64,000 bases of DNA from an uncultured Spirochaetota bacterium. Lineage in GTDB: Bacteria > Spirochaetota > Spirochaetia > SZUA-6 > CAVTHK01. The notes under the pieces were generated by a model that saw only the letters and a list, made by a program, of their open reading frames with translations, searched no databases and was not told the origin of the DNA. Within the stretch, counting starts at the first letter, position 1, and each line of letters starts with the position of its first letter. The translations under genes were made by a program, and so were the position numbers. The stretch is from the NCBI GenBank assembly GCA_963734495.1, contig CAVTHK010000002.1, forward strand, positions 64,001 through 128,000. The letters run 5' to 3'. This document shows, in pieces, positions 5,748 to 17,301 of this stretch.

Positions 5748-7181
5748 ATGAATTTCCCCTGGCGGATCTTCATCGATCTGGGGATCATCTCCGTCGCGCT
5801 CCTCATCTCCACGGTGATCCGCGCACGGGTGCGCTTTTTCCAGCGCTACCTGATCCCCAACTCGCTCACCGCGGGGTTTCTGCTGCTCTTCTTCTACAAC
5901 TACGGCGCCCCCCACTTCGGGCTCGACATGAACGGGCTCGGGGCGCTCGCCTACCACCTGCTGAACATTTCGTTCGTGGCGATGGTCTTGCGGCACCCCG
6001 CGCCTGCCGGCGGCCGCGTGCGTCGGCGCGCCTTTGGCATGGCGGTCGGCCTCATCTCGCAGTACGCGGTGCAGGCAACCCTCGGCCTGGTGCTGACGTT
6101 CGTGTTCATCTGGACCATCATGCCCAACCTTTTCCCCACGTTCGGGTTCTTCGTGCCGCTCGGCTTTTCGCTCGGGCCCGGCCAGGCGTACGCGATCGGC
6201 GCAGGATGGGAACGCTTCGGATTCAAAGGCGGCGGCAGCATCGGGCTCACGTTCGCGGCGCTCGGCTTTCTCTGGGCCTGCTTTGGCGGCGTGCCGCTGC
6301 TGAACATCGGCATCCGCAAGGGCTGGATCAGCGGAGAGCGGCTCAAGGGCGAGGTTGCCACAAGGGGCATCTATCCCCGCGGCGGCGAGTTCCCGGTCGG
6401 CTCGCGCCTGACGACCGAGAGCGAGGCCATCGACACGATGGGCATCAACCTCGCGGTGGCGCTGTTCGTCTACCTCCTGAGCTATCTGCTTCTACAGGGC
6501 ATCACCTGGCTGCTTTCGCTCGCCGGCAGGGCCGGGCAGGACCTCGCGGTGAGCCTGTGGGGCATCGCGTTCATCTTTGCCGCAATCGTCGCCATGGTGG
6601 TGCGGGCCATCATGACCGCCACGCGCACCGACCACGTGCTCGACGACGGCACCCTCACGCGCCTCTCCGGAGCGGCGGTCGACCTCATGGTGGCCGGCTC
6701 GCTCGGCGCGGTCTCGATAGTAGTCGTGATCGAGTACTGGCTCCCCATACTGGTGATGTCCACGCTCGCTGGATTTCTCGCCGTCGTGATGCTGCCTTGG
6801 ATGGGGTCGCGCATGTTCGACGACCACCATTTCGAGCGCATGATGATCATATACGGTTGCGCCACGGGCACCCTGGCGACGGGCCTGGCGCTGTTGCGCG
6901 TGGTGGATCCGGAGTTCGAGAGCCCCGTCGCGACCGACTACATGTACTCGTCGGCCCTCGTCTTTGTCCTTGTCATCCCGATGATCATCATGATCAACCT
7001 TCCCGCGTACGGCTACACCCAGCATCAGCCGATCTACTACTGGGTTTCCCTCGCGATCTGCGTCGCGTACATGATCTTCTCGGCGATCGGCTATCAGGTG
7101 CTTGCGCGCCGAAACGCCTACCGCGAGCCATCGAAGCTCTGGCTGGCCCGCGGCGCCCGCCGCCCGGGCAAGGAGGGCTGA
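5748..7181 (+). CDS. Sodium/glutamate symporter (GltS-like) membrane transporter
   Basis: About 12 hydrophobic segments; FFQRYLIPNSLTAG, GFSLGPG and YGCATGTLATGLALLRVVDPEF motifs. Confidence 0.75.
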   Translation: MNFPWRIFIDLGIISVALLISTVIRARVRFFQRYLIPNSLTAGFLLLFFYNYGAPHFGLDMNGLGALAYHLLNISFVAMVLRHPAPAGGRVRRRAFGMAVGLISQYAVQATLGLVLTFVFIWTIMPNLFPTFGFFVPLGFSLGPGQAYAIGAGWERFGFKGGGSIGLTFAALGFLWACFGGVPLLNIGIRKGWISGERLKGEVATRGIYPRGGEFPVGSRLTTESEAIDTMGINLAVALFVYLLSYLLLQGITWLLSLAGRAGQDLAVSLWGIAFIFAAIVAMVVRAIMTATRTDHVLDDGTLTRLSGAAVDLMVAGSLGAVSIVVVIEYWLPILVMSTLAGFLAVVMLPWMGSRMFDDHHFERMMIIYGCATGTLATGLALLRVVDPEFESPVATDYMYSSALVFVLVIPMIIMINLPAYGYTQHQPIYYWVSLAICVAYMIFSAIGYQVLARRNAYREPSKLWLARGARRPGKEG

Positions 7182-7184
7182 TCC

Positions 7185-8087
7185 ATGTCGCAGCCCCGCT
7201 CCCTGCCGCCGCCCACGGTCCTCACCCCGGCTGCCGGCGCCCCGACCGCCGCCGGCGCGGTCGCCGGCGCCGCGAAGCTCTACGTCCGCTGCGACGTCGA
7301 GGGAGCCAGCGGCGTCGTGAGCCCCGAGCAGGCCCGCGGGGCGGAGCAGGCCTTTGGCAGGCGCATGCTCATGGCGGACCTCAAGGCGCTCATCGAAGGT
7401 CTCCGCCAGGGCGGCGCCAGCGAGGTCCTTGTCTACGACGGTCACGACCAGGGCCTGAACGTGGACCCCGGCGAGCTGCCCCCCGGCGTGATGCTCATCA
7501 GCGGCCGGCCTCCCTATCGCCAGGACTGGAGCGGCGGGCTCGACGACACCTTTGCGGGCCTGATCCTCCTCGGCGCGCACGCGGCCGCCGGGACCGAGGT
7601 CGCGCTGCTCCCGCACACCTACGACGCGGACATCGTGGCGCTGCGGGCGAACGGCAGCGAGCTCGGCGAGATCGGGCTCGAGGCGGCGATCGCGGGCGAC
7701 CTCGGCGTGCCGCTGCTCATGATCACGGGCGACTCCGCGGCCGTGGCCGAGGGGTGCGCCGTCGCGCCCGAGGCGCTCGGCGTCGTCGTCAAGGAGGCCG
7801 TCGACCGCAGGGGCGCGCTCTGTTACGCGCTTGCGGTGACCACCGACCTGATCCGGAGGGCGGCGCAGCAGCTCGCCAAGGACCCCCCGCGCGCGACGCC
7901 GTTCAGGATCGAATCCCCGGTGACGCTCGAGGTCGAGCTCGCCCCGGGCCAGCTCCTCGACAGGATGCGCGAGCTCTTCCCGCGCGACGTCAAGGGGGAG
8001 CGCAAGGTCCGCATCAGGGGAAACACGGTGACCGAGGCCTGGGCCGGGTTCCAGGGCCGCTGGATGCGGGCGGTGCGTCGTACGTAA
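7185..8087 (+). CDS. M55 family D-aminopeptidase (DppA-like)
   Basis: LYVRCDVEGASG (DxE), YDGH, GAHA, PHT, GEIG and ITGD motifs. Confidence 0.8.
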   Translation: MSQPRSLPPPTVLTPAAGAPTAAGAVAGAAKLYVRCDVEGASGVVSPEQARGAEQAFGRRMLMADLKALIEGLRQGGASEVLVYDGHDQGLNVDPGELPPGVMLISGRPPYRQDWSGGLDDTFAGLILLGAHAAAGTEVALLPHTYDADIVALRANGSELGEIGLEAAIAGDLGVPLLMITGDSAAVAEGCAVAPEALGVVVKEAVDRRGALCYALAVTTDLIRRAAQQLAKDPPRATPFRIESPVTLEVELAPGQLLDRMRELFPRDVKGERKVRIRGNTVTEAWAGFQGRWMRAVRRT

Positions 8088-8096
8088 ACTCCAGGC

Positions 8097-9615
8097 ATGA
8101 CCCTGCCTGCTCTCCGCGGAGCGATCGGCTCCGACCCGTCGCTCATCGAACGCTGCAGCCGCGACATGAGCCGCTACCGCGTGCGGCCTCGCCTGGTCGC
8201 CTCCCCCGCGGACGAGGGGGACGTGCTGCGCCTCCTCGCCTACGCGGCGGAGGAGCGCGTGCCGGTGACCTGCCGCGGCGCCGGCTCGAACCTGTCGGGG
8301 TCCGCGGTCGGCCCCGGCATGGTGATGCTGACCGATCGCATGAGCGGCCTGCTGGCGATCGGCGCGAGCAGCGCGACCGCGCAGCCCGGCATCAAGTACG
8401 AGCAGCTCAACCGCCTCGCCGCGGCCAAAGGCCTCGCGCTTCGCTACGACGTGAGCTCGGGGCACTTTTCGACGATCGGCGGCAACATCTCGACCAAAGC
8501 GGGCGGCCTGCGCAGCGTCCGCTACGGGAACGTGGCGCGCTGGGTCCTCGGCGTCCGCTTCGTCTCGCCGGAGCTCGGCGTCGTGGACACGCGCGTTGGG
8601 GTCCCCGCGCCCCTGGCCGCCGCCCTGCAGGCGCTGCGCTCCGATCTCCTGGCCGACGCAGCCGGCGCGGACCGCGCTGGCGCGCCGCGGCTCGCTCAAG
8701 ACGGCAAGCGGCTACAACCTGCGCGGGCTGGTCGACGCCGCAACTCCCGAAGCCATGGTCGCGCAGCTGATGGTCGGCTCGGTGGGGACGCTGGGCGTGC
8801 TCACCGAGGTCGAGGTCGCGCTCCTCCCCGCGCCGCGCGCTCAGATCCTCCTCGCCGCGTTCTTCCAGCGGCTCGAGGACGCCTGCGGCCTGGCGGCCGA
8901 GCTCGCCGCGACGGGGCCCTCCGCGCTCGAGGCGATGGACGACGAAGGGACCCGGCTGCTCCTGGCCCTGGCGCCCGCCGGCGATCTGCCGGCGGCCGCC
9001 GATGCGGGCGCGGTCCTCCTGGTGGAGCACGAGGAGTCGGCCGCAGGATCGCCCGGCGCGGTCCCACCGGATGCCGAGGCTGCGCTGCGCATCCTCAACG
9101 CGCGCGCGCTTGCCGTCTGGCGGGTGCCGCCGTCCGCGGCCGAATCCGTCTGGAACGTGCGCTGGTCCATGCTCACCTCGATCCGCCGGGCGCACGAAAC
9201 CGACGACCGGCGCTTCCTCTCGTTCGTCGACGACCTCGCCGTTCCCATCGGGGCGCTCGGGTCCTTCCTCGAGGAGGTCACGAGGATCTTTGAGGCTGAA
9301 GGTATGCGCTCGGTCATCTACGGCCATCTCGGCGAGGGCAACCTTCACATGAGACCTCTGATCGAGAGGCAGGGCTGGCGCGAACGGGTCCACCGCGTGG
9401 CCGACCGCTGCTTCGAGGCCGCGCTCCGGCGGGGCGGCACGCTCACCGCCGAGCACGGCTCCGGCCGCAACCGCGCGCCCTTTCTGGCCCGCGAGTGGGG
9501 GGAGCGGCTGTACGGCTACTTCGGGAGGGTCAAGACGATCTTCGACCCCGGCGACCTGCTGAACCCGGGGGTCATGTTCTCGGATCGCGACTTCACGGAG
9601 GAGCTGGAGTTCTGA
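8097..9615 (+). CDS. FAD-binding oxidoreductase (GlcD/D-lactate dehydrogenase-like), frameshifted near 8660
   Basis: N-terminal RGAGSNLSG and TIGGNISTKAGG in one frame; KTASGYNL, GSVGTLG, GHLGEGNLH, TAEHGSG and FDPGDLLNPG in another. Confidence 0.85.
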
Positions 9616-9785
9616 CCCTGGCTGCCGCGCCGTGGATACGGGTCCGGCAGGGCGCGGGCTGATGCGCCGTGATGGACCGGCCGCCGCCTTCGAGGAGGCG
9701 GCTCCGGCAGCCCCTCGGGGGGCTGGGCAGAAAGGCCGCAGATGTCGATAATAGAAGGAACCACGAGTCGAAGGAGCTCTCACCT

Positions 9786-10379
9786 ATGAAGAAACTTGCG
9801 GTTCTCGCCGTGCTGGCCGTCGCGCTGGTCCTCACGGGGTGCGGAAACCCGCCGAAAGCCGACATCGACGCGGCCAAGGCGGCCTACAGCGCGGCCGTGG
9901 CGGCTCAGGCCGAAGCCTTTGCTCCCGACGCATTTGCGCGCGCCAAGGCCGCGATCGCCGCTCTCGATGCCGAGGTGGCAGCCCAGGCCCGTAAAATCTT
10001 CAAGGGCTACGACAAGGCGAAGAGTCTGGCCGCGGCCGCGCGCAAGGCCTCGGACGACGCCCGCGCCGCCGCGGAAACGCGCAAGACCGAGCTGAAGAAC
10101 GAGCTGCCCAGGACTCTCGCGTCGCTGCGGGACGGCGTGAGGACAACCCAGACCAAGCTCGCGGGCGCCCTCGCGATCCGGGGCATCAGCCTCGACGCCG
10201 CCGGGGCGAGGAACGACCTGGCCTCCGTCGCGCAGCTGCTGACCCAGGCGCAGAGCGACCTCGACGCGGGCCGGCTGGCCGACGCTTCAACGAAAGCGAA
10301 CCAGGCCCGTGACCTGCTCGCCCGCGTGAACAAGACCATCGACGACGCCCGCGCCGCCGCTACCGTAAAGAAGAGGTAG
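9786..10379 (+). CDS. Alanine-rich coiled-coil lipoprotein (DUF4398-like)
   Basis: Lipobox MKKLAVLAVLAVALVLTG-C; PPKADIDAAKAA..A.AFAP pattern. Confidence 0.7.
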   Translation: MKKLAVLAVLAVALVLTGCGNPPKADIDAAKAAYSAAVAAQAEAFAPDAFARAKAAIAALDAEVAAQARKIFKGYDKAKSLAAAARKASDDARAAAETRKTELKNELPRTLASLRDGVRTTQTKLAGALAIRGISLDAAGARNDLASVAQLLTQAQSDLDAGRLADASTKANQARDLLARVNKTIDDARAAATVKKR

Positions 10380-11595
10380 CAGGCCCCTGCCTTCGGGCGC
10401 AGTCGCCCCCCGCGAGGGCGCGGCCTTCCCGGGCGCGCTCTCGGGGGGCGCGCCCGGCGCGGGCGGCGCCGTTGCGGGCGCCTCAGCCGGAACCACGTTC
10501 TGATAGTACGTCGGGTCCGCGCGCAGGAGCGCCGCCTTGAGCAGGCGCAGCCTCACCACCACGCTGCCCTGGTCCGCCGGGTACCAGAAGAAGCGGTGCC
10601 CGTCGTTTCTCCAGTAGCGCGGCTCGACCTCCCCCCTGAACGGCGGCCTCACCTGCTGCAGCCACTTCAACGAGGGATCGCGCAGGGTCGCCTTCGGATT
10701 CTCGAACCGTATGACCGAGTCGTGGACCCCGCGCTCGTCCGCGGGCGCCCAGTCGGTCGACTGCACGTAGCGGATCGCGCCGGTTCCCAGGTCGATGGAC
10801 TGGATGACGGCCGAGTGCTTGAACGTACCGTCCGTGCCGCGGAACAGGATGATGTCGCCCGGCCTCAGGTCCTCTATCCGCTCGCTCGTGACCTCGGTGT
10901 ACCGGTTGCGGGGGTCGAGGAACGACAACCCGACGTACTGCGCGGCCCGCGACGGCGCCACGGCCCAGGCGCGCCCCAGCTCGACGTCCGCGTCGACCCC
11001 GTGCGCGAGCATCACCGCCTTCTCGATGTCGTAGACGAACCCCGCGCAATCGACCCCGAGGCCGGCGACCGCGTACAGGTAGTTGTAGACGTCGGTCTGG
11101 CTCACCGTGCCGCCGAAGCGCAGCACATGGACGCGCGTCTCCGTGCCGGGGTAGGGCCCCATCTCGAGCAGCCCGAGGAGCTTGGGGTCGTACGAGACGG
11201 TGTAGCCGCGCCGCTCGAGGTCGAAGATCACCGCCTGCTCCCGCGGCTCCATCAGCCGCGTCACGTACGCGCGGAACGCGTCGGAGGCCAGGACGGCGTC
11301 GATCAGGGGCCAGAGCTGCTCGGGGGCGCCTTTGGCTCCGAGCACGAACTCCTGCGTGTAGCCGGGCGTGCCTTCGCGCTCGCCGTTCATCCCGAAGGGC
11401 ATGCGCAGGGTCATCGCCTGGCCGCCGATGCGATAGAGCTTGAAGAACCTGCGATACGCGGTATCGATCAGCCGCTCGACGGTCGCCTCGACGGGCCCCT
11501 TGACCCGCGCGGGCGCCGGGGCGGCGGGGGCGTCGGCCTCCAGTCGAGCGAGCAGCAGCAGGCTCGAAAGCCAGCCTGCCGAAGGTGCGCAGCAT
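10287..11595 (-). CDS. Secreted protein with an NlpC/P60-like papain-fold domain; probable frameshift near the start
   Basis: GVDCAGFV, LRPGDIILF and KHSAVI (Cys-His dyad); signal-like start split between frames near 11565; both ends uncertain. Confidence 0.6.
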
Positions 11596-11867
11596 GCCTT
11601 CTCCCGTGGCGCGATTATGCCCGCCGCCGCCGCGCGCGTCCACAGGCCGGGACGGGCCGGAACGTTGCCGCCGGCGCCGCGAATGGTGTTGACCGCGCCT
11701 GACGGGCAAAGATACCTTACAAACCTGAGGGGAGAACGCCGGGCTGCGCCCGGGCCGGCCTGACAGGCGGCCCGGCCGGGGTATGCCCGGCGGAGCCCCT
11801 CGATACCAGCAGGCCTGGCCTCGACGGCCGGGCAGCCTCGCCCCGGGCGGCCAGGCAGGGAGGCACT

Positions 11868-12782
11868 ATGCCGGCACGATCCAGCTGGAAAGGATTCCTC
11901 AAGCTCAGCCTGGTCTCGGTCCCGGTCAAGGCTTACACCGCCAACGCCACCGGAAGCGAGATCACGCTGCACCAGCTTCACTCCAAGTCCCACACCCGGA
12001 TCCAGTACAAGAAGGTCGCGCCCGGGGTGGGGGAGGTGGGCGCCGAGGAGATCGTCAAGGGCTACGAGTACGCCAAGGGCCAGTACGTGGTCATCGACGA
12101 CGACGAGCTCGACAAGCTGCGCACGGAGAGCGACAAGTCCGTGCGCATCGACGGGTTCATCAAGCCGCAGCAGGTCGACGGCATCTACTACGGGGGCCGC
12201 ACCTACTACCTCACGCCGGACGGGGCGGTGGGGCAGAAGCCCTACACGCTCCTGCTGCGGAGCATGGAGGCCAACGGGGTCTGCGCGATCGCCGAAGTCG
12301 TGATCTCCCAGAGGGAGCAGGTGGTGCTGCTGCGGCCGGTGGACGGCGTGCTCGCCATGACGGTGCTGAACCGGCACGACCAGGTCAAGCTGGCGTCGGC
12401 CTTTAAGGATGAGATCCAGGAGAGCCCCGCCACCGAAGCCGAAGTGGCGCTCACAAACACGCTCATCAACGCTTCGATGATCCAGAGCTTCGACTTCGCG
12501 CGCTATCGCGACACCTACAAGGACAAGCTCACCAAGCTGATCCAGCTCAAGGTCGAAGGGCAGGAGATCGTGCAGGTGCACGATCCGGAGGAGCCCAAGA
12601 TCATCAACCTCATGGAGGCGCTCAAGCGCAGCGTCGCGGAGGCGCAGGCCGCGGGCGCGGCCCGGGAGGCCGGAGGCAACGGCAGCTCGAGCGAGGCGGA
12701 CAAGGCCGACCTCAAGCAGGCGCCCAGCGCAAAGGCGCGGAAGACCACGCAGACCACGCAGAAGAAGAGGAAAGTTGGATAG
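11868..12782 (+). CDS. ku: NHEJ DNA-end-binding protein Ku
   Basis: RSSWKGFLKLSLVSVPVKAY, EIVKGYEY, YRDTYKDKL, INLMEALKRSV and a basic C-terminal tail. Confidence 0.97.
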   Translation: MPARSSWKGFLKLSLVSVPVKAYTANATGSEITLHQLHSKSHTRIQYKKVAPGVGEVGAEEIVKGYEYAKGQYVVIDDDELDKLRTESDKSVRIDGFIKPQQVDGIYYGGRTYYLTPDGAVGQKPYTLLLRSMEANGVCAIAEVVISQREQVVLLRPVDGVLAMTVLNRHDQVKLASAFKDEIQESPATEAEVALTNTLINASMIQSFDFARYRDTYKDKLTKLIQLKVEGQEIVQVHDPEEPKIINLMEALKRSVAEAQAAGAAREAGGNGSSSEADKADLKQAPSAKARKTTQTTQKKRKVG

Positions 12783-13737
12783 AGCAGGCGGCGACCGGCT
12801 CCCGCGGTTCATCCCGCCGATGCTCGCCGTCCTCGGCGAGCCGTTCGATTCCGAGGAGCACCTGTACGAGGTCAAGTGGGACGGCATTCGCGCGCTCGCC
12901 CTGGTCGAGCGCGGCGGGCTGCGCCTGCTCAGCCGAAACGAGCAGCCCCTCGCGTCCCGCTACCCGGAGCTGGCGGAGCTGTCCGCGCTCCGCCCCGGGG
13001 TGGCGCTCGACGGCGAGATCGTGGCGCTCCGCGACGGCAAGCCCGACTTCAACGCGGTCCTGCGGCGCGGGGGCCTGGGCAGGGGCAAGCGATGGGGTCC
13101 GCCCGAGTCGTCCGGCCGGGATGCGGCCGGCGACGCCCCGGTGACGTACGTAGCCTTCGACATCCTCTACAAGGACCACGGGACGCTGATGCCGCTCCCG
13201 CTCGAGGAGCGGCGCAAGCACCTCGAGGAGCTGCTCGCGCCCGCGATCTCGCCGCGGCTCGTGCTCTCGGAGGGCGTGCGCGGGGCCGGGACCGCGCTCT
13301 ACCGCGAGGTCTGTGAAAAAGGGCTCGAAGGCGTCGTCGCCAAACGGCTTGCGAGCGCCTACGCGCCGGGCAAACGCAACGGCGCCTGGGTCAAGATCAA
13401 GCGCCGCCTCCGCGCGGTCTGCCTGGTCATCGGGTTCCTGGAGAAAGAAGGCCGCGACTTCCAGTGCCTCCTGGTGGCCACGAACCAGGTCCCGGGCGCC
13501 GATCCCGAGCCCGGCCCGCTGCGTTACGTGGGCCGGGTGGGCGGAGGGTTCAGCGAGGCCGTGCGGCGGCGGGTCAACGAGCTGATCTGGCCGCGGATCG
13601 TCCGCTCGCCGATCGTCCCCTGCCCCGAGCGGGGCGTGTGGATTGAAGCGGCCCTGTTTTGTACTGTAAGCTTCGCCGAGCTCACCGAGGCCGGCCTGCT
13701 GCGGGCCCCGGTGTTCGAAGGACTGGTCGAAGCGTAA
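12775..13737 (+). CDS. Stand-alone ATP-dependent DNA ligase (adenylation domain + OB fold; LigD-LIG/LigC-like)
   Basis: Intact motifs EVKWDGIR, LDGEIV, YVAFDIL, GLEGVVAKR and WVKIK; OB fold YVGRVGGGFS..LRAPVFEGL; overlaps the ku stop codon. Confidence 0.92.
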   Translation: MDRAGGDRLPRFIPPMLAVLGEPFDSEEHLYEVKWDGIRALALVERGGLRLLSRNEQPLASRYPELAELSALRPGVALDGEIVALRDGKPDFNAVLRRGGLGRGKRWGPPESSGRDAAGDAPVTYVAFDILYKDHGTLMPLPLEERRKHLEELLAPAISPRLVLSEGVRGAGTALYREVCEKGLEGVVAKRLASAYAPGKRNGAWVKIKRRLRAVCLVIGFLEKEGRDFQCLLVATNQVPGADPEPGPLRYVGRVGGGFSEAVRRRVNELIWPRIVRSPIVPCPERGVWIEAALFCTVSFAELTEAGLLRAPVFEGLVEA

Positions 13738-13740
13738 GCG

Positions 13741-14908
13741 ATGGAGGGCAACGATTCTCTTGCCGGCCGCGAGCTGGCGTTCACGGGTCGCCTCGTGTCC
13801 ATGACCCGGGCGGAGGCGATCGAGCGGCTCGCGCGAGCGGGGGCCCGGTGCGTCCGGACGCCCACCGAGTCGACCGACCTGCTGGTCGCCGGTCAGGCGA
13901 GGGGGCCGCTCCTCGAGGACGGCGGCCTCGCGGGCAACCTGGCCCGCTTCCGCGAGCTCAAGGAAGACGGAGCTTCGATCCGGCTCATCGAGGAGACCGA
14001 GCTCCTGCGGCTGCTCGGCGTCCCGGAGGAGATCGAGGACTTCACCCGGCTCTACACCACTGTGCAGGTCAGCCGCATCGTCGACGCGCCGCTCTCCGAA
14101 GTGCGCGGGTGGCTGCGCAACGGCCTGATCCAGCCCGCCCGCGTAGCCAAGCGCCTCGCGTGGTTCGAGTTCCGCGACATCGTCCACGCCCGCTCGCTCA
14201 GCCGCCTCGCGGCGTCGGGGATCCCGGCCGCGCGCATCCGGCGCAGCCTGGGCGAGATCTCGCGGTGGCTTCCCGACGCGGACCGGATGATCGGCCGCAT
14301 CGAGGCCTACGACCGGCGGCTGCGGGTGCGCCTGCAGGGCGGGGGCTGGGCGGAGCCGAGCGGCCAGATGCTGCTGGATTTCGCGGCCGAGCGCGGCGGC
14401 GAATCGCGCGTGGCCGTTTTCCCGCGCGGGCAACGCGGAAGCGCGGCTCGACACCGCGCCCTGGTTCTACCAGGGCGTCGCAGCCGAGGAGCGCGGCGAC
14501 CTGGAGGGCGCGGCCGAAGCGTACCGGCGCGCCGCCGGCGCCGTCCCGGAGCCCGAGACGTGCTTCAACCTCGGCAACGTTCTCTACGACCTCGGCCGCG
14601 AGGTCGAGGCCGCCGAGCGGTACCTGCAGGCGATCGAAGCGGACCGCGACTTCGCCGAGGCCTGGAACAACCTCGGCAACTCGATGGCCGCCCTGGGAAA
14701 GCTGGAGGACGCGGTGCACGCCTACGAGACGGCGCTGGCGCTCGAGCCCGCGTATGCGGACGCGCACTGCAACCTCGCGGCCGTGCTGGAGCGGCTCGGC
14801 CGGCCGGCGCAGGCGCTCGAGCACAGGGCCTCTTGCGAGAAAGCCTACCCGACGCGGCGGCACCTCGAGCTGCTGCACGGCGGAGCTGCGGACGAGGGCG
14901 AGGAGTAG
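13741..14908 (+). CDS. BRCT + MerR-type HTH + TPR protein; frameshift near 14430
   Basis: LAGRELAFTGRLVSMTRAEA..TDLLVAG (LigA-type BRCT); YTTVQVSRIV..VRGWLRNGLIQP..FEFRDI (MerR HTH); about 4 TPRs in the shifted frame (FNLGNVLYDLG, AEAWNNLG, ADAHCNLA). Confidence 0.85.
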
Positions 14909-14926
14909 GCGGCTCTTCCGGGGCGG

Positions 14927-16943
14927 CTACAGGTACCTGCTCAGCGCCGCAATGGCGGGCGCAAGGTCCTGCGGCTTCGAGAGCGAGGGCCGGAACAGGT
15001 CGCCCGTGCGCTCGACGCGGGCGGGCGCGTTGGCGAGCGTGAAGTCCGCGACGCGGAAGTCGCTTTCGAGCTCGTCCCACTGCAGCGGCATCGAGACGGA
15101 GGCTGCTTCCACCGGGCGCACCACGTAAGGCGGCACGACGGTCTGCTCCCGCCTGTTCTGCAGGAAATCGACGTAGACCTTGCCCTCGCGCCGGCCGATC
15201 ACGCGCTCGACCGTGGCGATGTCGCCGTGGTCGCGCACCAGCAGGCGCGCGACGGCTTCCGAGAACATGCGGCTCTGCTCGTACGTGTAGCCCGGCGCGA
15301 GCGGGATGAACACGTGAAGCCCCGATGAGCCCGACGTCTTCAGGAACGGCTCCAGCCCGAGCCCGCGCAGAAGCTTGCCCGCCTCCCGCGCGATCTTGAT
15401 CACGCTCGAAAAGGGAGCGTCCTTGGGGTCGAGGTCGAGGACGGCCCAGTCGGGCGAGTCGAGGCTTCCGCGACGGGAAAACCAGGGGTGAAGGTCGATG
15501 CTCCCCAGGTTGATCAGGTGCAGCAGGGTGCGCCGGTCGTTGCAGACGATGTAGCGCGCCGGCTCCTCTCCCTCGCGGGCCACGTCGGCCGTCTCGACCC
15601 AGTCGGGCAGGCCGTCGGGGAGCGCCTTCTGATAGAAGGACTTGCCGCGGATCCCGTCGGGCCAGCGGTACATGTGCAGCGGCCGCTCCCGCAGGTACGG
15701 CAGGATGTGGTCGGCGATCCGGTCGTAGTACGCGTACAGGTCCGCCTTGGTGTAGCCCTGCTCCGGCCAGTACACCTTTCGGGGATTCGTGAGGGGCGAC
15801 GGCGCGGGCGCTGCCGCCGCGCGGAGCGCGGCCTTTGTCCGCTTGCGTCCCGTGACGGCGATGAGCCGCCAGTCTTCGGAGCGTCCCGCGCGATACGGGC
15901 TTTCGGCGCGCTTGGCGACGATCGCCGGCAGCCCCGCTCCTGCGGCCGCTTCGGCGAGCTCCGCCCCTCGCTCGGCAATCGGGTCGACCGGCAGCACGTG
16001 AGGCAGCTCCGGAAGCAGGTTGCGCAGGGCGGCCTTTCGCTCCCGCAGCGGCAGCCCGCGCAGGTCCCACTCCTCGGCGTAGAGCACGTCGTAGAGGTAG
16101 AGCAGGATGCCCTGCCCGTCGCCCGCGAGCCTGGCGTCGAGGGCCTCGCGGGAGGGGCGGCCTTGGGCATCGAGGGCGACGAGGACGCCGTCGAGGAGCG
16201 CCGTCTCGGCCCGGACGGACTCGAGCTCCTTGACGATGCGCGGCAGGAGCGGCGCCAGGTCCTCCTTGTCCGCGCTGAGGCTCGGCGCTCGACCCTTCGA
16301 TCGCCGCGAGCACCCTCCTCCCGACAAAGCCGGGCTCGAACATCCAGGCGGGGTCGGAGAAGGGCTCGAAGCCCTCCGCCGGCTCCATCAAGCCGGGCTT
16401 GCGGGGGGCCGGCGCGCGCCGCGCCCGCGAGAGGTCGACGCCGGCGAACAGGTCGCTGCCCGAGCCCGCGTAGCGGTCGCGCGCCTTGAAGAGCAGCCAG
16501 TCCCGGCCGCCTTCGCGCTTCGTCTGCACGAGGTGCCACTCCCCGCGCAGCCGGCGGCCCTTGAGCACGAGCTTGAGCTCCCCTTCGGCAAGGGCCTGGG
16601 TGACGTCCTTGCTCCGGAGCAGCTCGTAGTCCCCCGTGTCCCAGATCTGCATGGTACCCGCGCCGTACTCGCCCGTGGGGATGACGCCGGAGAAGGTCTC
16701 GTACTCGAGGGGGTGGTCTTCGGTGCGGACCGCGAGCCGCTTGTCCGCGGGGTCGTACGAGAAGCCTTTGGGCACCGCGAACGAGGCGAGGGCTTCGCCC
16801 GCCACGAAGCGGAAATCGTAGTGAAGCCGGCGCGCCTCGTGGCGGTGCACGACGAAGACCGGCCGGAGCCGCTGCTCCGCGGCCGGCTCCGGCTCGGGCG
16901 TCCTCGAGAAATCGCGCTTGCGTTTGTATTCCGCGGTCCCCAT
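14927..16943 (-). CDS. ligD: LigD-like protein: phosphoesterase + inactivated ligase domain + primase-polymerase; frameshift near 16280
   Basis: PE: YKRKRDF, HEARRLHYDFR, EDHPLEY, GEYGAG. POL: LTNPRKVYWP, FYQK, DLDP, KTSGSSGLHV, YVDFLQN. Middle domain has EPGFVGRR in place of ExKxDGxR. Confidence 0.9.
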
Positions 16944-17035
16944 GGCCGCGGTCAATGTAACCGCCGGATGAGCGCGTTTCCAAGCGGGAACCCGGGCTTG
17001 ATCACCGCCCCGTCGCTGCGCTATCTTCTGAGGCG

Positions 17036-17284
17036 ATGCCGATCTACGAGTACATGTGCCGCGAGTGCGGCACTCGCAACGAGTTCCTCGAAGGCGTGAC
17101 CAGCGAGAAGGTGGACAAGGTCTGCTCCGAGTGCGGGAGCGGCGATCTCACCAAGCTGATTTCGATGGCGGCCTTTACCGTCGCCGGCGGCCATTCGTCG
17201 GCCGAGGGCGCCTGCGCCTGCGGCCACGAAGGCCACGGTCCCGAAGGCGGCTGCTGCGGCGGGGACTGCGCCTGCAACAACTGA
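17036..17284 (+). CDS. FmdB family zinc-ribbon protein
   Basis: MPIYEYMCRECG..CSECGS..KLIS with a Cys-rich tail. Confidence 0.9.
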   Translation: MPIYEYMCRECGTRNEFLEGVTSEKVDKVCSECGSGDLTKLISMAAFTVAGGHSSAEGACACGHEGHGPEGGCCGGDCACNN

Positions 17285-17301
17285 GGCTCGCGCCGGCGGG
17301 C

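Follow-up and report, generated by a model that had tools for sequence, protein, structure and literature searches.

The window, a stretch of 64,000 nucleotides from an uncultured Spirochaetota bacterium, carries an end-joining module of four genes, namely ku, a gene for a stand-alone LigD-type ligase, a gene coding for a protein with BRCT, MerR-type winged helix-turn-helix (wHTH) and TPR domains (hereafter gene 3), and a LigD with PE and POL domains flanking a dead ligase (LIG) domain. With moderate confidence, we interpret these genes as a conserved variant of bacterial NHEJ with divided labor, in which gene 3 would act as an accessory factor and the two frameshifts encountered in the window would be artefacts. 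We found no published description of this four-gene module in the literature.

Organization and distribution of the module

ku (11868-12782, plus strand) is intact and codes for a protein of 304 aa, whose full-length core scores above the curated cut-off for the family (TIGR02772, 256.2 bits against a cut-off of 150, over profile positions 1-259 of 259; PF02735, 150.4 bits). It is the sole Ku match in the window genome, which additionally holds a single LigD and one unrelated ATP ligase. The stand-alone ligase gene (12775-13737, plus strand) starts with TTG, codes for 320 aa and shares 8 nt with ku; it is followed, after a gap of 3 nt, by gene 3 (13741-14908, plus strand). LigD is encoded on the minus strand (16943-14927), convergent to the ku operon, with 18 nt between the converging stops of gene 3 (14908) and LigD (14927). 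Profile matches, together with these distances read from the sequence, bear out the content and spacing of the four genes given by the sequence-only reading, which had, however, silently read gene 3 and LigD as single frames; each of them has one frameshift in the window.

For a wider view we surveyed 77 unique loci, drawn from Planctomycetota and from MAGs labelled Spirochaetota; because gene 3 was the entry point for assembling this set and its members are related by phylogeny, counts over them do not represent independent events. ku and the ligase lie beside gene 3 in 42 of the 77, and the Ku-ligase-gene 3 set with a nearby LigD recurs both in the window's order, where at least four families have it, and among the Planctomycetota, many of which do. 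Conservation of the four-gene neighborhood had been set beforehand as the test on which the proposal could fall, and the outcome favors the proposal, as the module recurs in two phyla. Of 61 genomes of the order, 23 have both Ku and gene 3, 2 have Ku alone, 2 have gene 3 alone, and 34 have neither; i.e., gene 3 tracks ku, with both occurring in 23 of the 27 genomes having either. Among 20 loci fetched from the order, Ku is present in 17, a full-length ligase in 19 and LigD in 17, with the misses falling partly at contig ends. The window Ku is 57-75% identical to 17 orthologues, the Ku tree tracks the families of the order, and composition is uniform. Of the earlier suggestion that the module was possibly acquired horizontally, this leaves at most an ancient inter-phylum event.

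Reading-frame shifts in gene 3 and LigD

Gene 3 is read in the frame of 13741 up to ...RVAVFPR (to 14427) and thereafter in the +1 frame, with SRAGNAEARLD... from 14420, to the stop at 14906-14908; the shift (14415..14435, plus strand) lies within a variable, disordered linker. LigD, spanning 2017 nt (3n+1), likewise departs from one uninterrupted reading frame, with its PE domain in the frame of 16943 and the dead LIG and POL domains in that of the ORF 14927-16327. Its shift (16283..16300, minus strand) consists of one extra base relative to the orthologues, AAIEGS ending at 16290 and SLSADKEDL starting at 16282 in the next frame, within a stretch of 46 nt that compares with 15 codons in the orthologues. 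Each of the 20 gene 3 orthologues retrieved from the order is one ORF of 380-467 aa, and LigD is a single ORF in each of the 12 full-length orthologues aligned. The window assembly itself is rich in indels, with 4 of 22 conserved genes split over frames (7 junctions in 10,002 aligned aa). Given such an assembly and intact orthologues, both window frameshifts are probably assembly errors, and this, rather than decay, is the explanation that sequence comparison makes most likely.

The competing view would be that in the window genome, and perhaps in the genus, the module has become a cluster of decaying pseudogenes, nonfunctional there though maybe working in relatives. It could draw on the presence of two frameshifts inside 3.2 kb, and on a same-genus genome (G001) with one frame change in the ligase, three in LigD and a stretch of the PE region missing. 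In both these genomes ku and some 8 flanking genes stay colinear and keep their frames, and gene 3 of G001 is free of them while LigD of the same genome has its three. A further genome (G022), for which the search returned no Ku, keeps gene 3 beside a ligase remnant of a mere 32 aa. Nevertheless, the background in the window genome, about 0.23 frameshifts per kb of coding DNA, leads one to expect about 1.2 in the 5.1-kb module against the 2 observed; moreover, the single-base shifts aside, the genes show 54-80% identity to their orthologues and the correct frames are free of stop codons. We rate decay as improbable, and retain the reading of the frameshifts as assembly errors.

Catalytic domains of LigD and the separate ligase

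The POL (Prim-Pol) domain of LigD (14927..15790, minus strand, including the stop codon; PF21686, 288 bits; TIGR02778, 248 bits), when aligned to 5dmu and 5op0, keeps DLDP, SGSSGLH (SGxxGxH) and the Asp of YVDFLQN, i.e., the Asp-x-Asp and the third Asp on which catalysis by these domains depends. The PE domain (16470..16943, minus strand; PF13298, 132 bits; TIGR02777, 190 bits) aligns to that of Pseudomonas aeruginosa LigD (2lj6, E 4.4e-40) with HxxxxxHYDFR and EDHPLxY conserved; the catalytic residues, namely the His/His/Asp set in its usual numbering, Arg, His, and Tyr, are all present. The list of these residues comes partly from PMC8656161, from a portion of that paper. Between the two domains, and ending about 20 residues before POL begins, lies a remnant of the nucleotidyltransferase (NTase) (15854..16400, minus strand; PF01068, 27.4 bits; TIGR02779, 80.9 bits over positions 39-180 of 302), with no match to the OB model PF04679 anywhere in the window LigD. 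Its motif I remnant, read from the sequence as WMFEPGFVGRR (16346-16314, minus strand), has EPGFVGRR where ExKxDGxR is expected, so the motif I lysine is replaced, and the other catalytic motifs have LDGV for LDGE, LPAIVAK for LEGVVAK and WRLIAV for WVKIK, replacements that take the Glu out of LDGE and EG..AK and the two lysines out of WxKxK. All 12 full-length orthologues of the order likewise fall short of an NTase complete in its motif I lysine and in motifs III, IV, and V: that lysine, the OB domain and the other catalytic residues are missing from them too. The description of this LigD as ligase-dead therefore stands as regards the motif I lysine, with the complete loss of the OB domain, left unstated at the time, to be added to it.

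The stand-alone ligase combines NTase and OB domains (PF01068, 105.4 bits; PF04679, 48.5 bits), and has EVKWDGIR as its motif I, along with LDGEIV, LEGVVAKR, and WVKIKR. Residues 14-317 align to the ligase domain of Mycobacterium tuberculosis LigD (1vs0, E 2.5e-28), and the protein scores 217.7 bits with TIGR02779, just below the NCBIfam NHEJ-ligase cut-off of 227.75, versus 114.1 bits with NF006078, which we take to be the model for LigC-type ligases. We infer from these motifs that it is probably this enzyme that does the sealing. Across the survey, LigDs adjoining a stand-alone ligase have lost the motif I lysine in all 33 readable cases among the 77 loci, and the sole LigD without a stand-alone ligase (1 of 1; locus L079) keeps it in HEIKFDGYR, with a ligase match extending through the OB region. 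Five genomes with ku but no stand-alone ligase in the gene 3 locus (L079 and four others without LigD in that locus) have ligase-domain ORFs with ExKxDGxR; in three of the five, including the genome of L079 itself, these ORFs are large (860-902 aa). As death of the LigD ligase is thus coupled to the presence of a separate ligase, the division of labor proposed in the sequence-only reading is well supported at this level.

The same coupling, which is perfect in the loci examined, counts against the stand-alone ligase being a LigC-like enzyme of excision or single-strand-break repair, with LigD only processing ends, in a role apart from classical NHEJ, and with co-regulation rather than a shared machine behind the proximity to ku. 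Such an arrangement has precedent in mycobacteria, where a portion of PMC5663958 places stand-alone LigC ligases with Prim-Pol partners in base excision repair, and the unrelated ligase of the window genome provides a second ATP-dependent enzyme. The 8-nt overlap of the ligase gene with ku and the higher score of its product with the LigD ligase-domain model, however, join the coupling in making this scenario very improbable, and we continue to regard the ligase as the probable sealing component of an NHEJ system.

The dead ligase domain of LigD shows 38-66% identity among orthologues, compared with 47-60% for the presumably live stand-alone ligase; being conserved about as well, it appears to be under purifying selection, and has probably been retained as a structural or docking module. 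In M. tuberculosis, the C-terminus of Ku makes contact with POL as well as with LIG of LigD, according to a portion of PMC13717202, and contact of this kind could be the reason for a dead LIG domain to persist.

[quoted passage not shown] It departs from that system in the loss from LIG of the motif I Lys, other catalytic residues, and entire OB domain, and in the insertion after ku of two genes, one for a separate ligase and the other being gene 3. Sealing and end processing are likewise on different polypeptides in the split 'non-conventional' NHEJ (Methanocella-type Lig, Pol, and PE; 5dmu, 5dmp; Sharda et al., 2020, PMC7719229, in part), unlike which the window LigD retains a ligase-like domain and its PE and POL stay fused. 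The accessible part of that paper sorts NHEJ systems by the presence of domains, and the word 'lysine' is absent from this part of its main text. Since the window LigD keeps a ligase-like domain, domain-based surveys would class it as conventional.

Gene 3 and a proposed mechanism

The first frame of gene 3 (13741..14427, plus strand) codes for a BRCT domain (~13741-14028), a MerR-type wHTH (~14041-14260), and a conserved middle region, as delineated by PF13411, NCBIfam and an AF2 model (pLDDT 89.8, pTM 0.80). The second (14420..14908, plus strand), 53-83% identical to orthologues, codes for a linker, a TPR domain (~14462-14881; NCBIfam TPR matches), and an acidic tail that precedes the stop. 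The BRCT region is under the cut-off of the Pfam BRCT model; it has NCBIfam matches to the LigA and DnaQ BRCT domains and aligns to Escherichia coli LigA (2owo, phmmer E 2e-4) with FTGRL against LTGSL. In the model, residues 3-96 adopt the BRCT fold, with LigA and RFC1 BRCT domains as the best Foldseek and VIA matches (Foldseek: 9a6z_B of LigA, 3e-4; 2ebu and 2k7f of RFC1, 5-8e-4). The closest domains overall are those of LigA, RFC1 p140 and PARP1, and the TG...R.EA...G pattern is common with LigA; the gene 3 BRCT differs from these domains in being N-terminal in a non-enzymatic protein and fused to the wHTH and TPRs. The TPR fold is evident in the model of the G001 orthologue (VIA Z 17-21.6, with matches including the peptide-binding modules Hop TPR1, Sti1 TPR2B, and PP5), and several Pfam TPR models exceed their cut-offs in the orthologues, giving at least three repeats.

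This architecture is reminiscent of eukaryotic BRCT scaffolds (Lig4-XRCC4, the Pol mu/lambda BRCT, XRCC1-Lig3), which likewise have a BRCT-bearing non-catalytic protein with end-joining enzymes, and weak fold matches of the gene 3 BRCT include the Pol mu NHEJ gap-filling complex (9cq3), Lig4, and XRCC1. The analogy to eukaryotic scaffolding drawn earlier nevertheless fails on inspection: the BRCT is a single domain of the LigA/RFC1/PARP1-like type rather than a tandem phosphopeptide reader, and gene 3 is devoid of it in many lineages that keep all four genes, so it is not essential to the module. We see no evidence for homology of the whole system to eukaryotic BRCT-scaffolded NHEJ.

The wHTH scores above the cut-off of the Pfam MerR_1 model (PF13411, 25.1 bits against 21.6) in the window and in the four orthologues scanned (27.8-40.5 bits), with a phmmer match to GlnR (E 0.024) and VIA Z values of 6.4-7.3 to SoxR, TipAN, RacA, TnrA, and GlnR. 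Structurally it is nearest to DNA-bound MerR-family regulators (SoxR, TipAN, GlnR, TnrA, CvkR), which raises the alternative that gene 3 codes for a MerR-like transcription factor acting on the ku operon promoter or another one, sensing DNA ends or damage via the BRCT or a TPR-bound partner, and is not a repair subunit. A regulator could act in ku-less genomes too and would fit the orphan copies of gene 3: 21 of the 77 loci, some of them at contig ends, have neither ku nor ligase within ~7 kb, the orphan copies share no conserved neighbor, and in four of five genomes (of unknown completeness) with ku-less gene 3 loci no Ku was found. The association between gene 3 and NHEJ is not a strict one.

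It would also suit a regulator that a promoter and leader are conserved upstream of ku. The putative window promoter, read from the sequence as TTGACC and TACCTT with an 18-nt spacer (11689..11718, plus strand), resembles the TTGAC(T/A)-N17-TAGCTT present 5' of ku in most relatives; it is absent from the output of a consensus promoter scan. Comparison with relatives places after it a GC-rich leader of ~150 nt (11719..11867, plus strand) with a conserved GAGGGGAG box right behind the -10 element, and no Rfam family matched in 11400-17300. However, MerR-activated promoters have spacers of 19-20 nt, and those of the ku promoters, the ones inspected, are ordinary (17 nt in relatives, 18 nt in the window), with no conserved palindrome noticed in them by eye. 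Classical MerR regulators possess a long antiparallel coiled-coil dimerization helix and then an effector-binding region; the predicted structure of gene 3 has neither, its wHTH being followed by a helix of just 12 residues (180-191), short strands, and the disordered linker. Even minimal MerR regulators (GlnR, TnrA, RacA), with the same winged HTH fold, differ from gene 3, which has a BRCT in front and TPRs behind. Gene 3 is, furthermore, the last gene of a tightly coupled operon, with the 3-nt gap before it. A role purely in transcription thus seems unlikely to us.

We return to the reading of gene 3 as an accessory factor of an NHEJ system with divided labor and propose the following mechanism. 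Ku would thread onto broken DNA ends, and LigD would contribute end processing only, via its 3'-phosphoesterase and primase-polymerase, with its conserved but catalytically dead, OB-less ligase remnant probably playing a structural or docking role. Sealing would fall to the LigD-type ligase, encoded straight after ku and likely to be translationally coupled to it. The gene 3 product would most likely be a DNA-bound accessory factor, with its LigA/RFC1-type BRCT and MerR-type winged helix occupying DNA at the end or close to it, and its TPR unit of 3-4 repeats holding a peptide of a partner, be it the Ku tail, the ligase or LigD. A more specific version, which we offer tentatively as possible rather than probable, is that gene 3 provides a third structural component, a sensor of DNA ends or nicks formed by BRCT and wHTH, whose TPR captures a tail belonging to Ku, the ligase, or LigD and so builds up a multi-subunit complex, with the dead LIG domain docking the free ligase. 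If this were true, NHEJ of Planctomycetota and the Spirochaetota-labelled lineages would rely on a scaffolded machine with an evolutionary origin separate from that of the XRCC4/XRCC1-type scaffolds of eukaryotes.

Architecture of the locus and its LigD ligase domain

The four genes, between 11868 and 16943 of the window, are ku (11868-12782, + strand; TIGR02772, 256 bits against a cut-off of 150), a stand-alone ligase of 320 aa with a TTG start (12775-13737, + strand; PF01068 NTase domain at 105 bits, PF04679 OB domain at 48.5 bits), a third gene (hereafter gene 3; 13741-14908, + strand) coding for BRCT, MerR-type winged helix-turn-helix (wHTH), and TPR regions, and a convergent gene for LigD (16943-14927, - strand). 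The ligase start overlaps ku by 8 nt, gene 3 begins 3 nt past the ligase stop, and the LigD stop lies 18 nt from that of gene 3. These spacings agree exactly with the sequence-only reading, whose description of a four-component NHEJ module was right in substance but overlooked frameshifts in gene 3 and LigD. Over its full length, the stand-alone ligase can be aligned to the M. tuberculosis LigD ligase domain (1vs0, E = 2.5e-28), and its motif I reads EVKWDGIR. A genome search of the assembly (18 contigs, 5.38 Mb, 68% GC, 83% completeness) recovered one Ku and one LigD. The same genome codes for a further, unrelated ATP ligase (contig C1, 484596-485177, locus L133; PF01068 NTase at 172.8 bits, in a 776-codon open frame) that is unlinked to the module. 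PADLOC assigned none of the four module proteins to a defense-system family.

Upstream of ku is a putative promoter, TTGACC-N18-TACCTT (11689-11718), whose counterpart in relatives reads TTGAC(T/A)-N17-TAGCTT. More generally, the stretch 11689-11867 combines a promoter-like TTGACY-N17/18-TA(G/C)CTT element, a GGGAGGG-type box, and a GC-rich leader of ~100-150 nt before ku, an arrangement common to most relatives; in two of these (L022 and L023), the box doubles as the ribosome-binding site. A search with Rfam gave no family in 11400-17300 at E <= 1, and a consensus scan of the locus gave no + strand promoter and no terminator. Divergent from ku is a gene of ~400 aa (10290-11600, - strand) without a Pfam family, conserved in the same-genus genome G001 (74% identity over 377 aa). 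Further out, at 8097-9612, an FAD-linked oxidase is present as two ORFs that overlap but differ in frame (8097-9293 and 8455-9612), the C-terminal domain being on the second ORF only; the syntenic region of G001 showed no long match here.

When the LigD of the window is aligned with 12 full-length orthologs, the catalytic-lysine position of ligase motif I is occupied by G, S, A, or E in all 13 (EPGFVGRR, ETSFTGRR, ELEFDGLR, etc.). Elsewhere in this remnant, LDGV stands against LDGE of the stand-alone ligases, L-P/S/H-x-I/L-V-A-K against LEGVVAK, and WR-L/R-I/V against WVKIK, the roles of these motifs being those known from the nucleotidyltransferase literature. The OB domain is wholly missing, the POL domain comes after a short linker, and the remnant matches the NHEJ ligase model of NCBIfam at positions 39-180 of 302 only. 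The HxxxxxHYDFR and EDHPLEY motifs of the PE domain align to the P. aeruginosa LigD PE, and the DLDP, SGSSGLH, and Asp of YVDFLQN in POL align to solved NHEJ polymerases, so that both domains look active. As judged from their motifs, these comparisons show a LIG remnant that is dead yet conserved, with the catalytic motifs intact in PE, POL, and the free ligase. Identity among orthologs is 38-66% for the dead LigD domain and 47-60% for the live stand-alone ligase; as the former is about as conserved as the latter, this speaks for its being kept in a non-catalytic role.

Distribution, proposed division of labor, and ancestry of the module

We surveyed 61 genomes of the order with the N-terminal half of gene 3 and with Ku as queries. 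Each was found in 25/61 genomes, with both present in 23 and neither in 34; Ku occurs without gene 3 in two (G047, as a weak 53-bit fragment, and G054) and gene 3 without Ku in another two (G022 and G049). The 20 loci fetched around gene 3 contain Ku in 17, a full-length ligase in 19, and LigD in 17 cases, the misses lying partly at contig ends. In a one-genome-per-species scan, at least 536 stretches encode gene 3 relatives; the best 80 were kept, which carry labels of Spirochaetota/Spirochaetia MAGs and, in larger numbers, Planctomycetota (including Pirellulaceae, Gemmataceae, and Brocadiaceae). With 8 duplicates removed, the locus set held 77 unique loci. Among these, with the scan limited to the best 80 of at least 536, Ku is present in 50, the stand-alone ligase in 48, and both in 42, leaving 8 loci with Ku and no ligase, 6 with ligase and no Ku, and 21 with neither; LigD lies in 37, and its motif I is readable in 34. 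Since these loci were collected via gene 3 and are related, the counts describe lineages and not independent events. In L020, L056, and L059 (and, for LigD, in L016-L019), insertions of 2.5-7 kb lie between ku and the ligase or between gene 3 and LigD; judging from these arrangements, the module tolerates splitting into ku, ligase-gene 3, and ligD blocks.

Within the same 77 loci (best 80 of at least 536), the motif I lysine is absent from every LigD beside a stand-alone ligase (33/33). The only LigD in a locus devoid of a stand-alone ligase (L079, of the same 77 loci) has HEIKFDGYR, and its ligase match runs through the OB region. We further searched five genomes whose gene 3 locus has ku and no stand-alone ligase, namely four with Ku and gene 3 only and that of L079: all five code for ligase-domain ORFs with an intact ExKxDGxR, and three have such ORFs of LigD size (860-902 aa). 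L137 and L141 share one of these three genomes, L138 belongs to a second, and the third has L140, the LigD of L079 itself.

Canonical bacterial NHEJ consists of Ku and LigD, whereas here the LigD ligase is predicted to be dead and a separate ligase and gene 3 are added. We propose that Ku would bind the ends, LigD would trim and fill them, and the free ligase would seal, while the dead LIG domain may persist as a docking surface. This division of labor between LigD and the free ligase, already put forward in the sequence-only reading, is well supported by the comparative sequence evidence. According to the abstract of PMC13717202 (2026), the C-terminus of M. tuberculosis Ku makes contact with LigD at its POL domain as well as at its LIG domain.

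A Ku tree of 50 rows (hits of <240 aligned residues and 8 duplicates left out; midpoint-rooted only) places the 23 Spirochaetota-labeled rows on one side of a branch with support of 65/81 (not starred). This group lies inside a well-supported split (98/97) together with 9 Planctomycetota rows, the other 18 Planctomycetota rows being on the opposite side. The topology would fit a single old transfer from one phylum to the other, whose direction the midpoint root does not fix. Within the order, the tree follows families. The GC content is 0.69-0.72 across the locus, the same as its surroundings; the flanks are metabolic genes (M55 peptidase, FAD oxidase, PfkB, DHDPS, and epimerase), and no mobile-element families were found in them. 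On the flat composition, metabolic flanks, and family-wise Ku tree, we reject a recent horizontal acquisition in the window's genome; the possible horizontal acquisition raised in the sequence-only reading would apply at most to an ancient event between the phyla.

Frame interruptions in the copy of the window

Neither gene 3 nor LigD is a single open frame in the window. The frame of gene 3 that starts at 13741 holds to ...RVAVFPR, ending at 14427, and the +1 frame then takes over with SRAGNAEARLD... (from 14420), reaching its stop at 14906-14908; beyond the switch, the long ORF 13741-15042 continues as Arg/Pro-rich off-frame sequence. In LigD, the frame of 16943 encodes the PE domain and that of the ORF 14927-16327 encodes the dead ligase and POL, with the switch between 16290 and 16282. 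This stretch measures 46 nt against 15 codons in the orthologs, which points to one extra base.

To gauge the indel rate of the assembly, a set of 85 long, coding-like ORFs was taken from 400 kb of sequence in the related genome G009 and searched against it; 63 had no match of >=50% identity and were dropped. Four of the 22 conserved genes kept are split over two or three frames (e.g., C2:180533-183105, C7:223553-224705, C10:95235-96356, and C7:370077-371612); the 10,002 residues aligned contain 7 junctions. This corresponds to ~0.23 shifts per coding kb, at which rate the 5.1-kb module would be expected to contain ~1.2, versus 2 observed; the assembly being indel-rich, any single frameshift in it deserves distrust. 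Gene 3 is a single ORF in 20/20 orthologous loci fetched from the order, as is LigD in the 12/12 full-length orthologs aligned. Given this high rate and the unbroken orthologs, assembly error is the likelier source of both frameshifts.

They may alternatively reflect real decay in the genome or genus. In the G001 locus (L013, G001:C46:18000-36000, ~6480-10590), the frame changes once within the stand-alone ligase and three times within LigD, which also lacks a counterpart of PE residues 132-179, whereas ku and gene 3, like about eight neighboring genes, are colinear and shift-free in both G001 and the window (the tblastx synteny was noisy and only long HSPs of >120 bits were used). These changes in the enzyme genes of G001 may themselves be real decay in the genus or local assembly trouble. 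In public read runs, the share of the sampled words was at most 0.15, and contigs from four of these runs bridge neither site: the nearest pieces end at 16284 and start at 16312, with nothing usable at 14415-14435, so that these reads bear on neither frameshift. Assembly error remains our preferred account of the window's two shifts. Elsewhere in the order, L024 (G022:C54:7000-18609, ~8645-9905) has an intact gene 3 beside a 32-residue remnant of the stand-alone ligase; Ku was not found in that genome (91% complete), and the locus looks like a decayed module.

Gene 3 and the significance of the variant

Relatives of gene 3 are named in public records only as 'tetratricopeptide repeat protein' or 'hypothetical protein', and its N-terminal 220 residues alone retrieve 504 clusters (50% identity) at E <= 1e-10. 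As the full-length model gave fold matches to TPR proteins only, the N-terminal half was modeled alone with AlphaFold (pLDDT 89.8, pTM 0.80, 90-row alignment). Residues 3-96 form a predicted BRCT fold (Foldseek: LigA 9a6z_B, 3e-4; RFC1 p140 BRCT 2ebu and 2k7f, 5-8e-4; VIA Z 8.4-8.9) that matches the E. coli LigA BRCT by phmmer (E = 2e-4), with a common FTGRL/LTGSL pattern. Residues 103-172 form a MerR-type winged helix (VIA: SoxR Z 7.3, TipAN 7.2, also RacA, TnrA, and GlnR; Pfam MerR_1 25.1 bits), followed in the model by a short 12-residue helix and small strands. The model of the G001 ortholog (pLDDT 80) continues with a disordered, length-variable linker, in which the frameshift of the window's copy sits, and then a TPR domain resembling the peptide-binding modules Hop TPR1, Sti1 TPR2B, and PP5 (Z 17-21.6). 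In many Planctomycetota and one genus of the order, the wHTH is the first domain of gene 3 and lies only ~20-90 nt from the ligase stop, leaving no room for a BRCT; hence, the conserved core comprises the wHTH, the middle region, and the TPRs.

The winged helix raises the possibility of a transcription factor, which we consider less likely: the model is without the MerR dimerization helix, the ku promoters have ordinary spacers (N17 in relatives, N18 in the window), the BRCT belongs to a class that binds DNA in LigA and RFC1, and gene 3 stands at the end of the operon with tight coupling. For these reasons, we favor a DNA-bound accessory or scaffold factor, albeit at about even confidence. A role confined to NHEJ is disfavored, because gene 3 occurs with no ku or ligase within ~7 kb in 21 of the 77 unique loci (best 80 of at least 536 kept), Ku was not found anywhere in four of five such orphan genomes searched (completeness not established), and no conserved neighbor was found for the orphan copies. 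Orphans in Planctomycetota include L066, L067, L070-L072, L076-L078, L082, L087, L090, L094, L095, L098, L100, L109, and L110. The analogy to eukaryote-like BRCT scaffolding drawn in the sequence-only reading is weak. A predicted complex of two Ku chains and gene 3 (G009 orthologs, own alignments, run without controls) gave scores of 0.30 and 0.29, short of the 0.32 mark, and is evidence neither way.

In teaching and in genome engineering, bacterial NHEJ is treated as a system of two proteins, Ku and LigD. In open-access full text we found no description of the four-gene module or of a dead-ligase LigD beside a stand-alone ligase. The accessible portions of an S. meliloti NHEJ paper (PMC6379672) have no mention of BRCT, TPR, or MerR, those of a LigD structural review (PMC8656161) none of BRCT or stand-alone, and those of a preprint (10.1101/2023.09.30.560322) none of Spirochaetota or Planctomycetota; a survey (PMC7719229) sorts NHEJ by the presence of domains, the word 'lysine' being absent from its main text as available. 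The system is thus apparently a variant of a known one that is not in print. Our proposals on who seals, on the dead domain, and on gene 3 draw on sequence and genomic context. If they are true, 'LigD' genes of a widespread class would be incapable of ligation, and surveys that count domains would misjudge who seals; the pseudo-ligase domain would be kept for a non-catalytic job, offering a natural separation-of-function system for the Ku-LigD architecture; and the uncharacterized family that accompanies ku in two phyla or more would be a candidate for an extra NHEJ factor or regulator.
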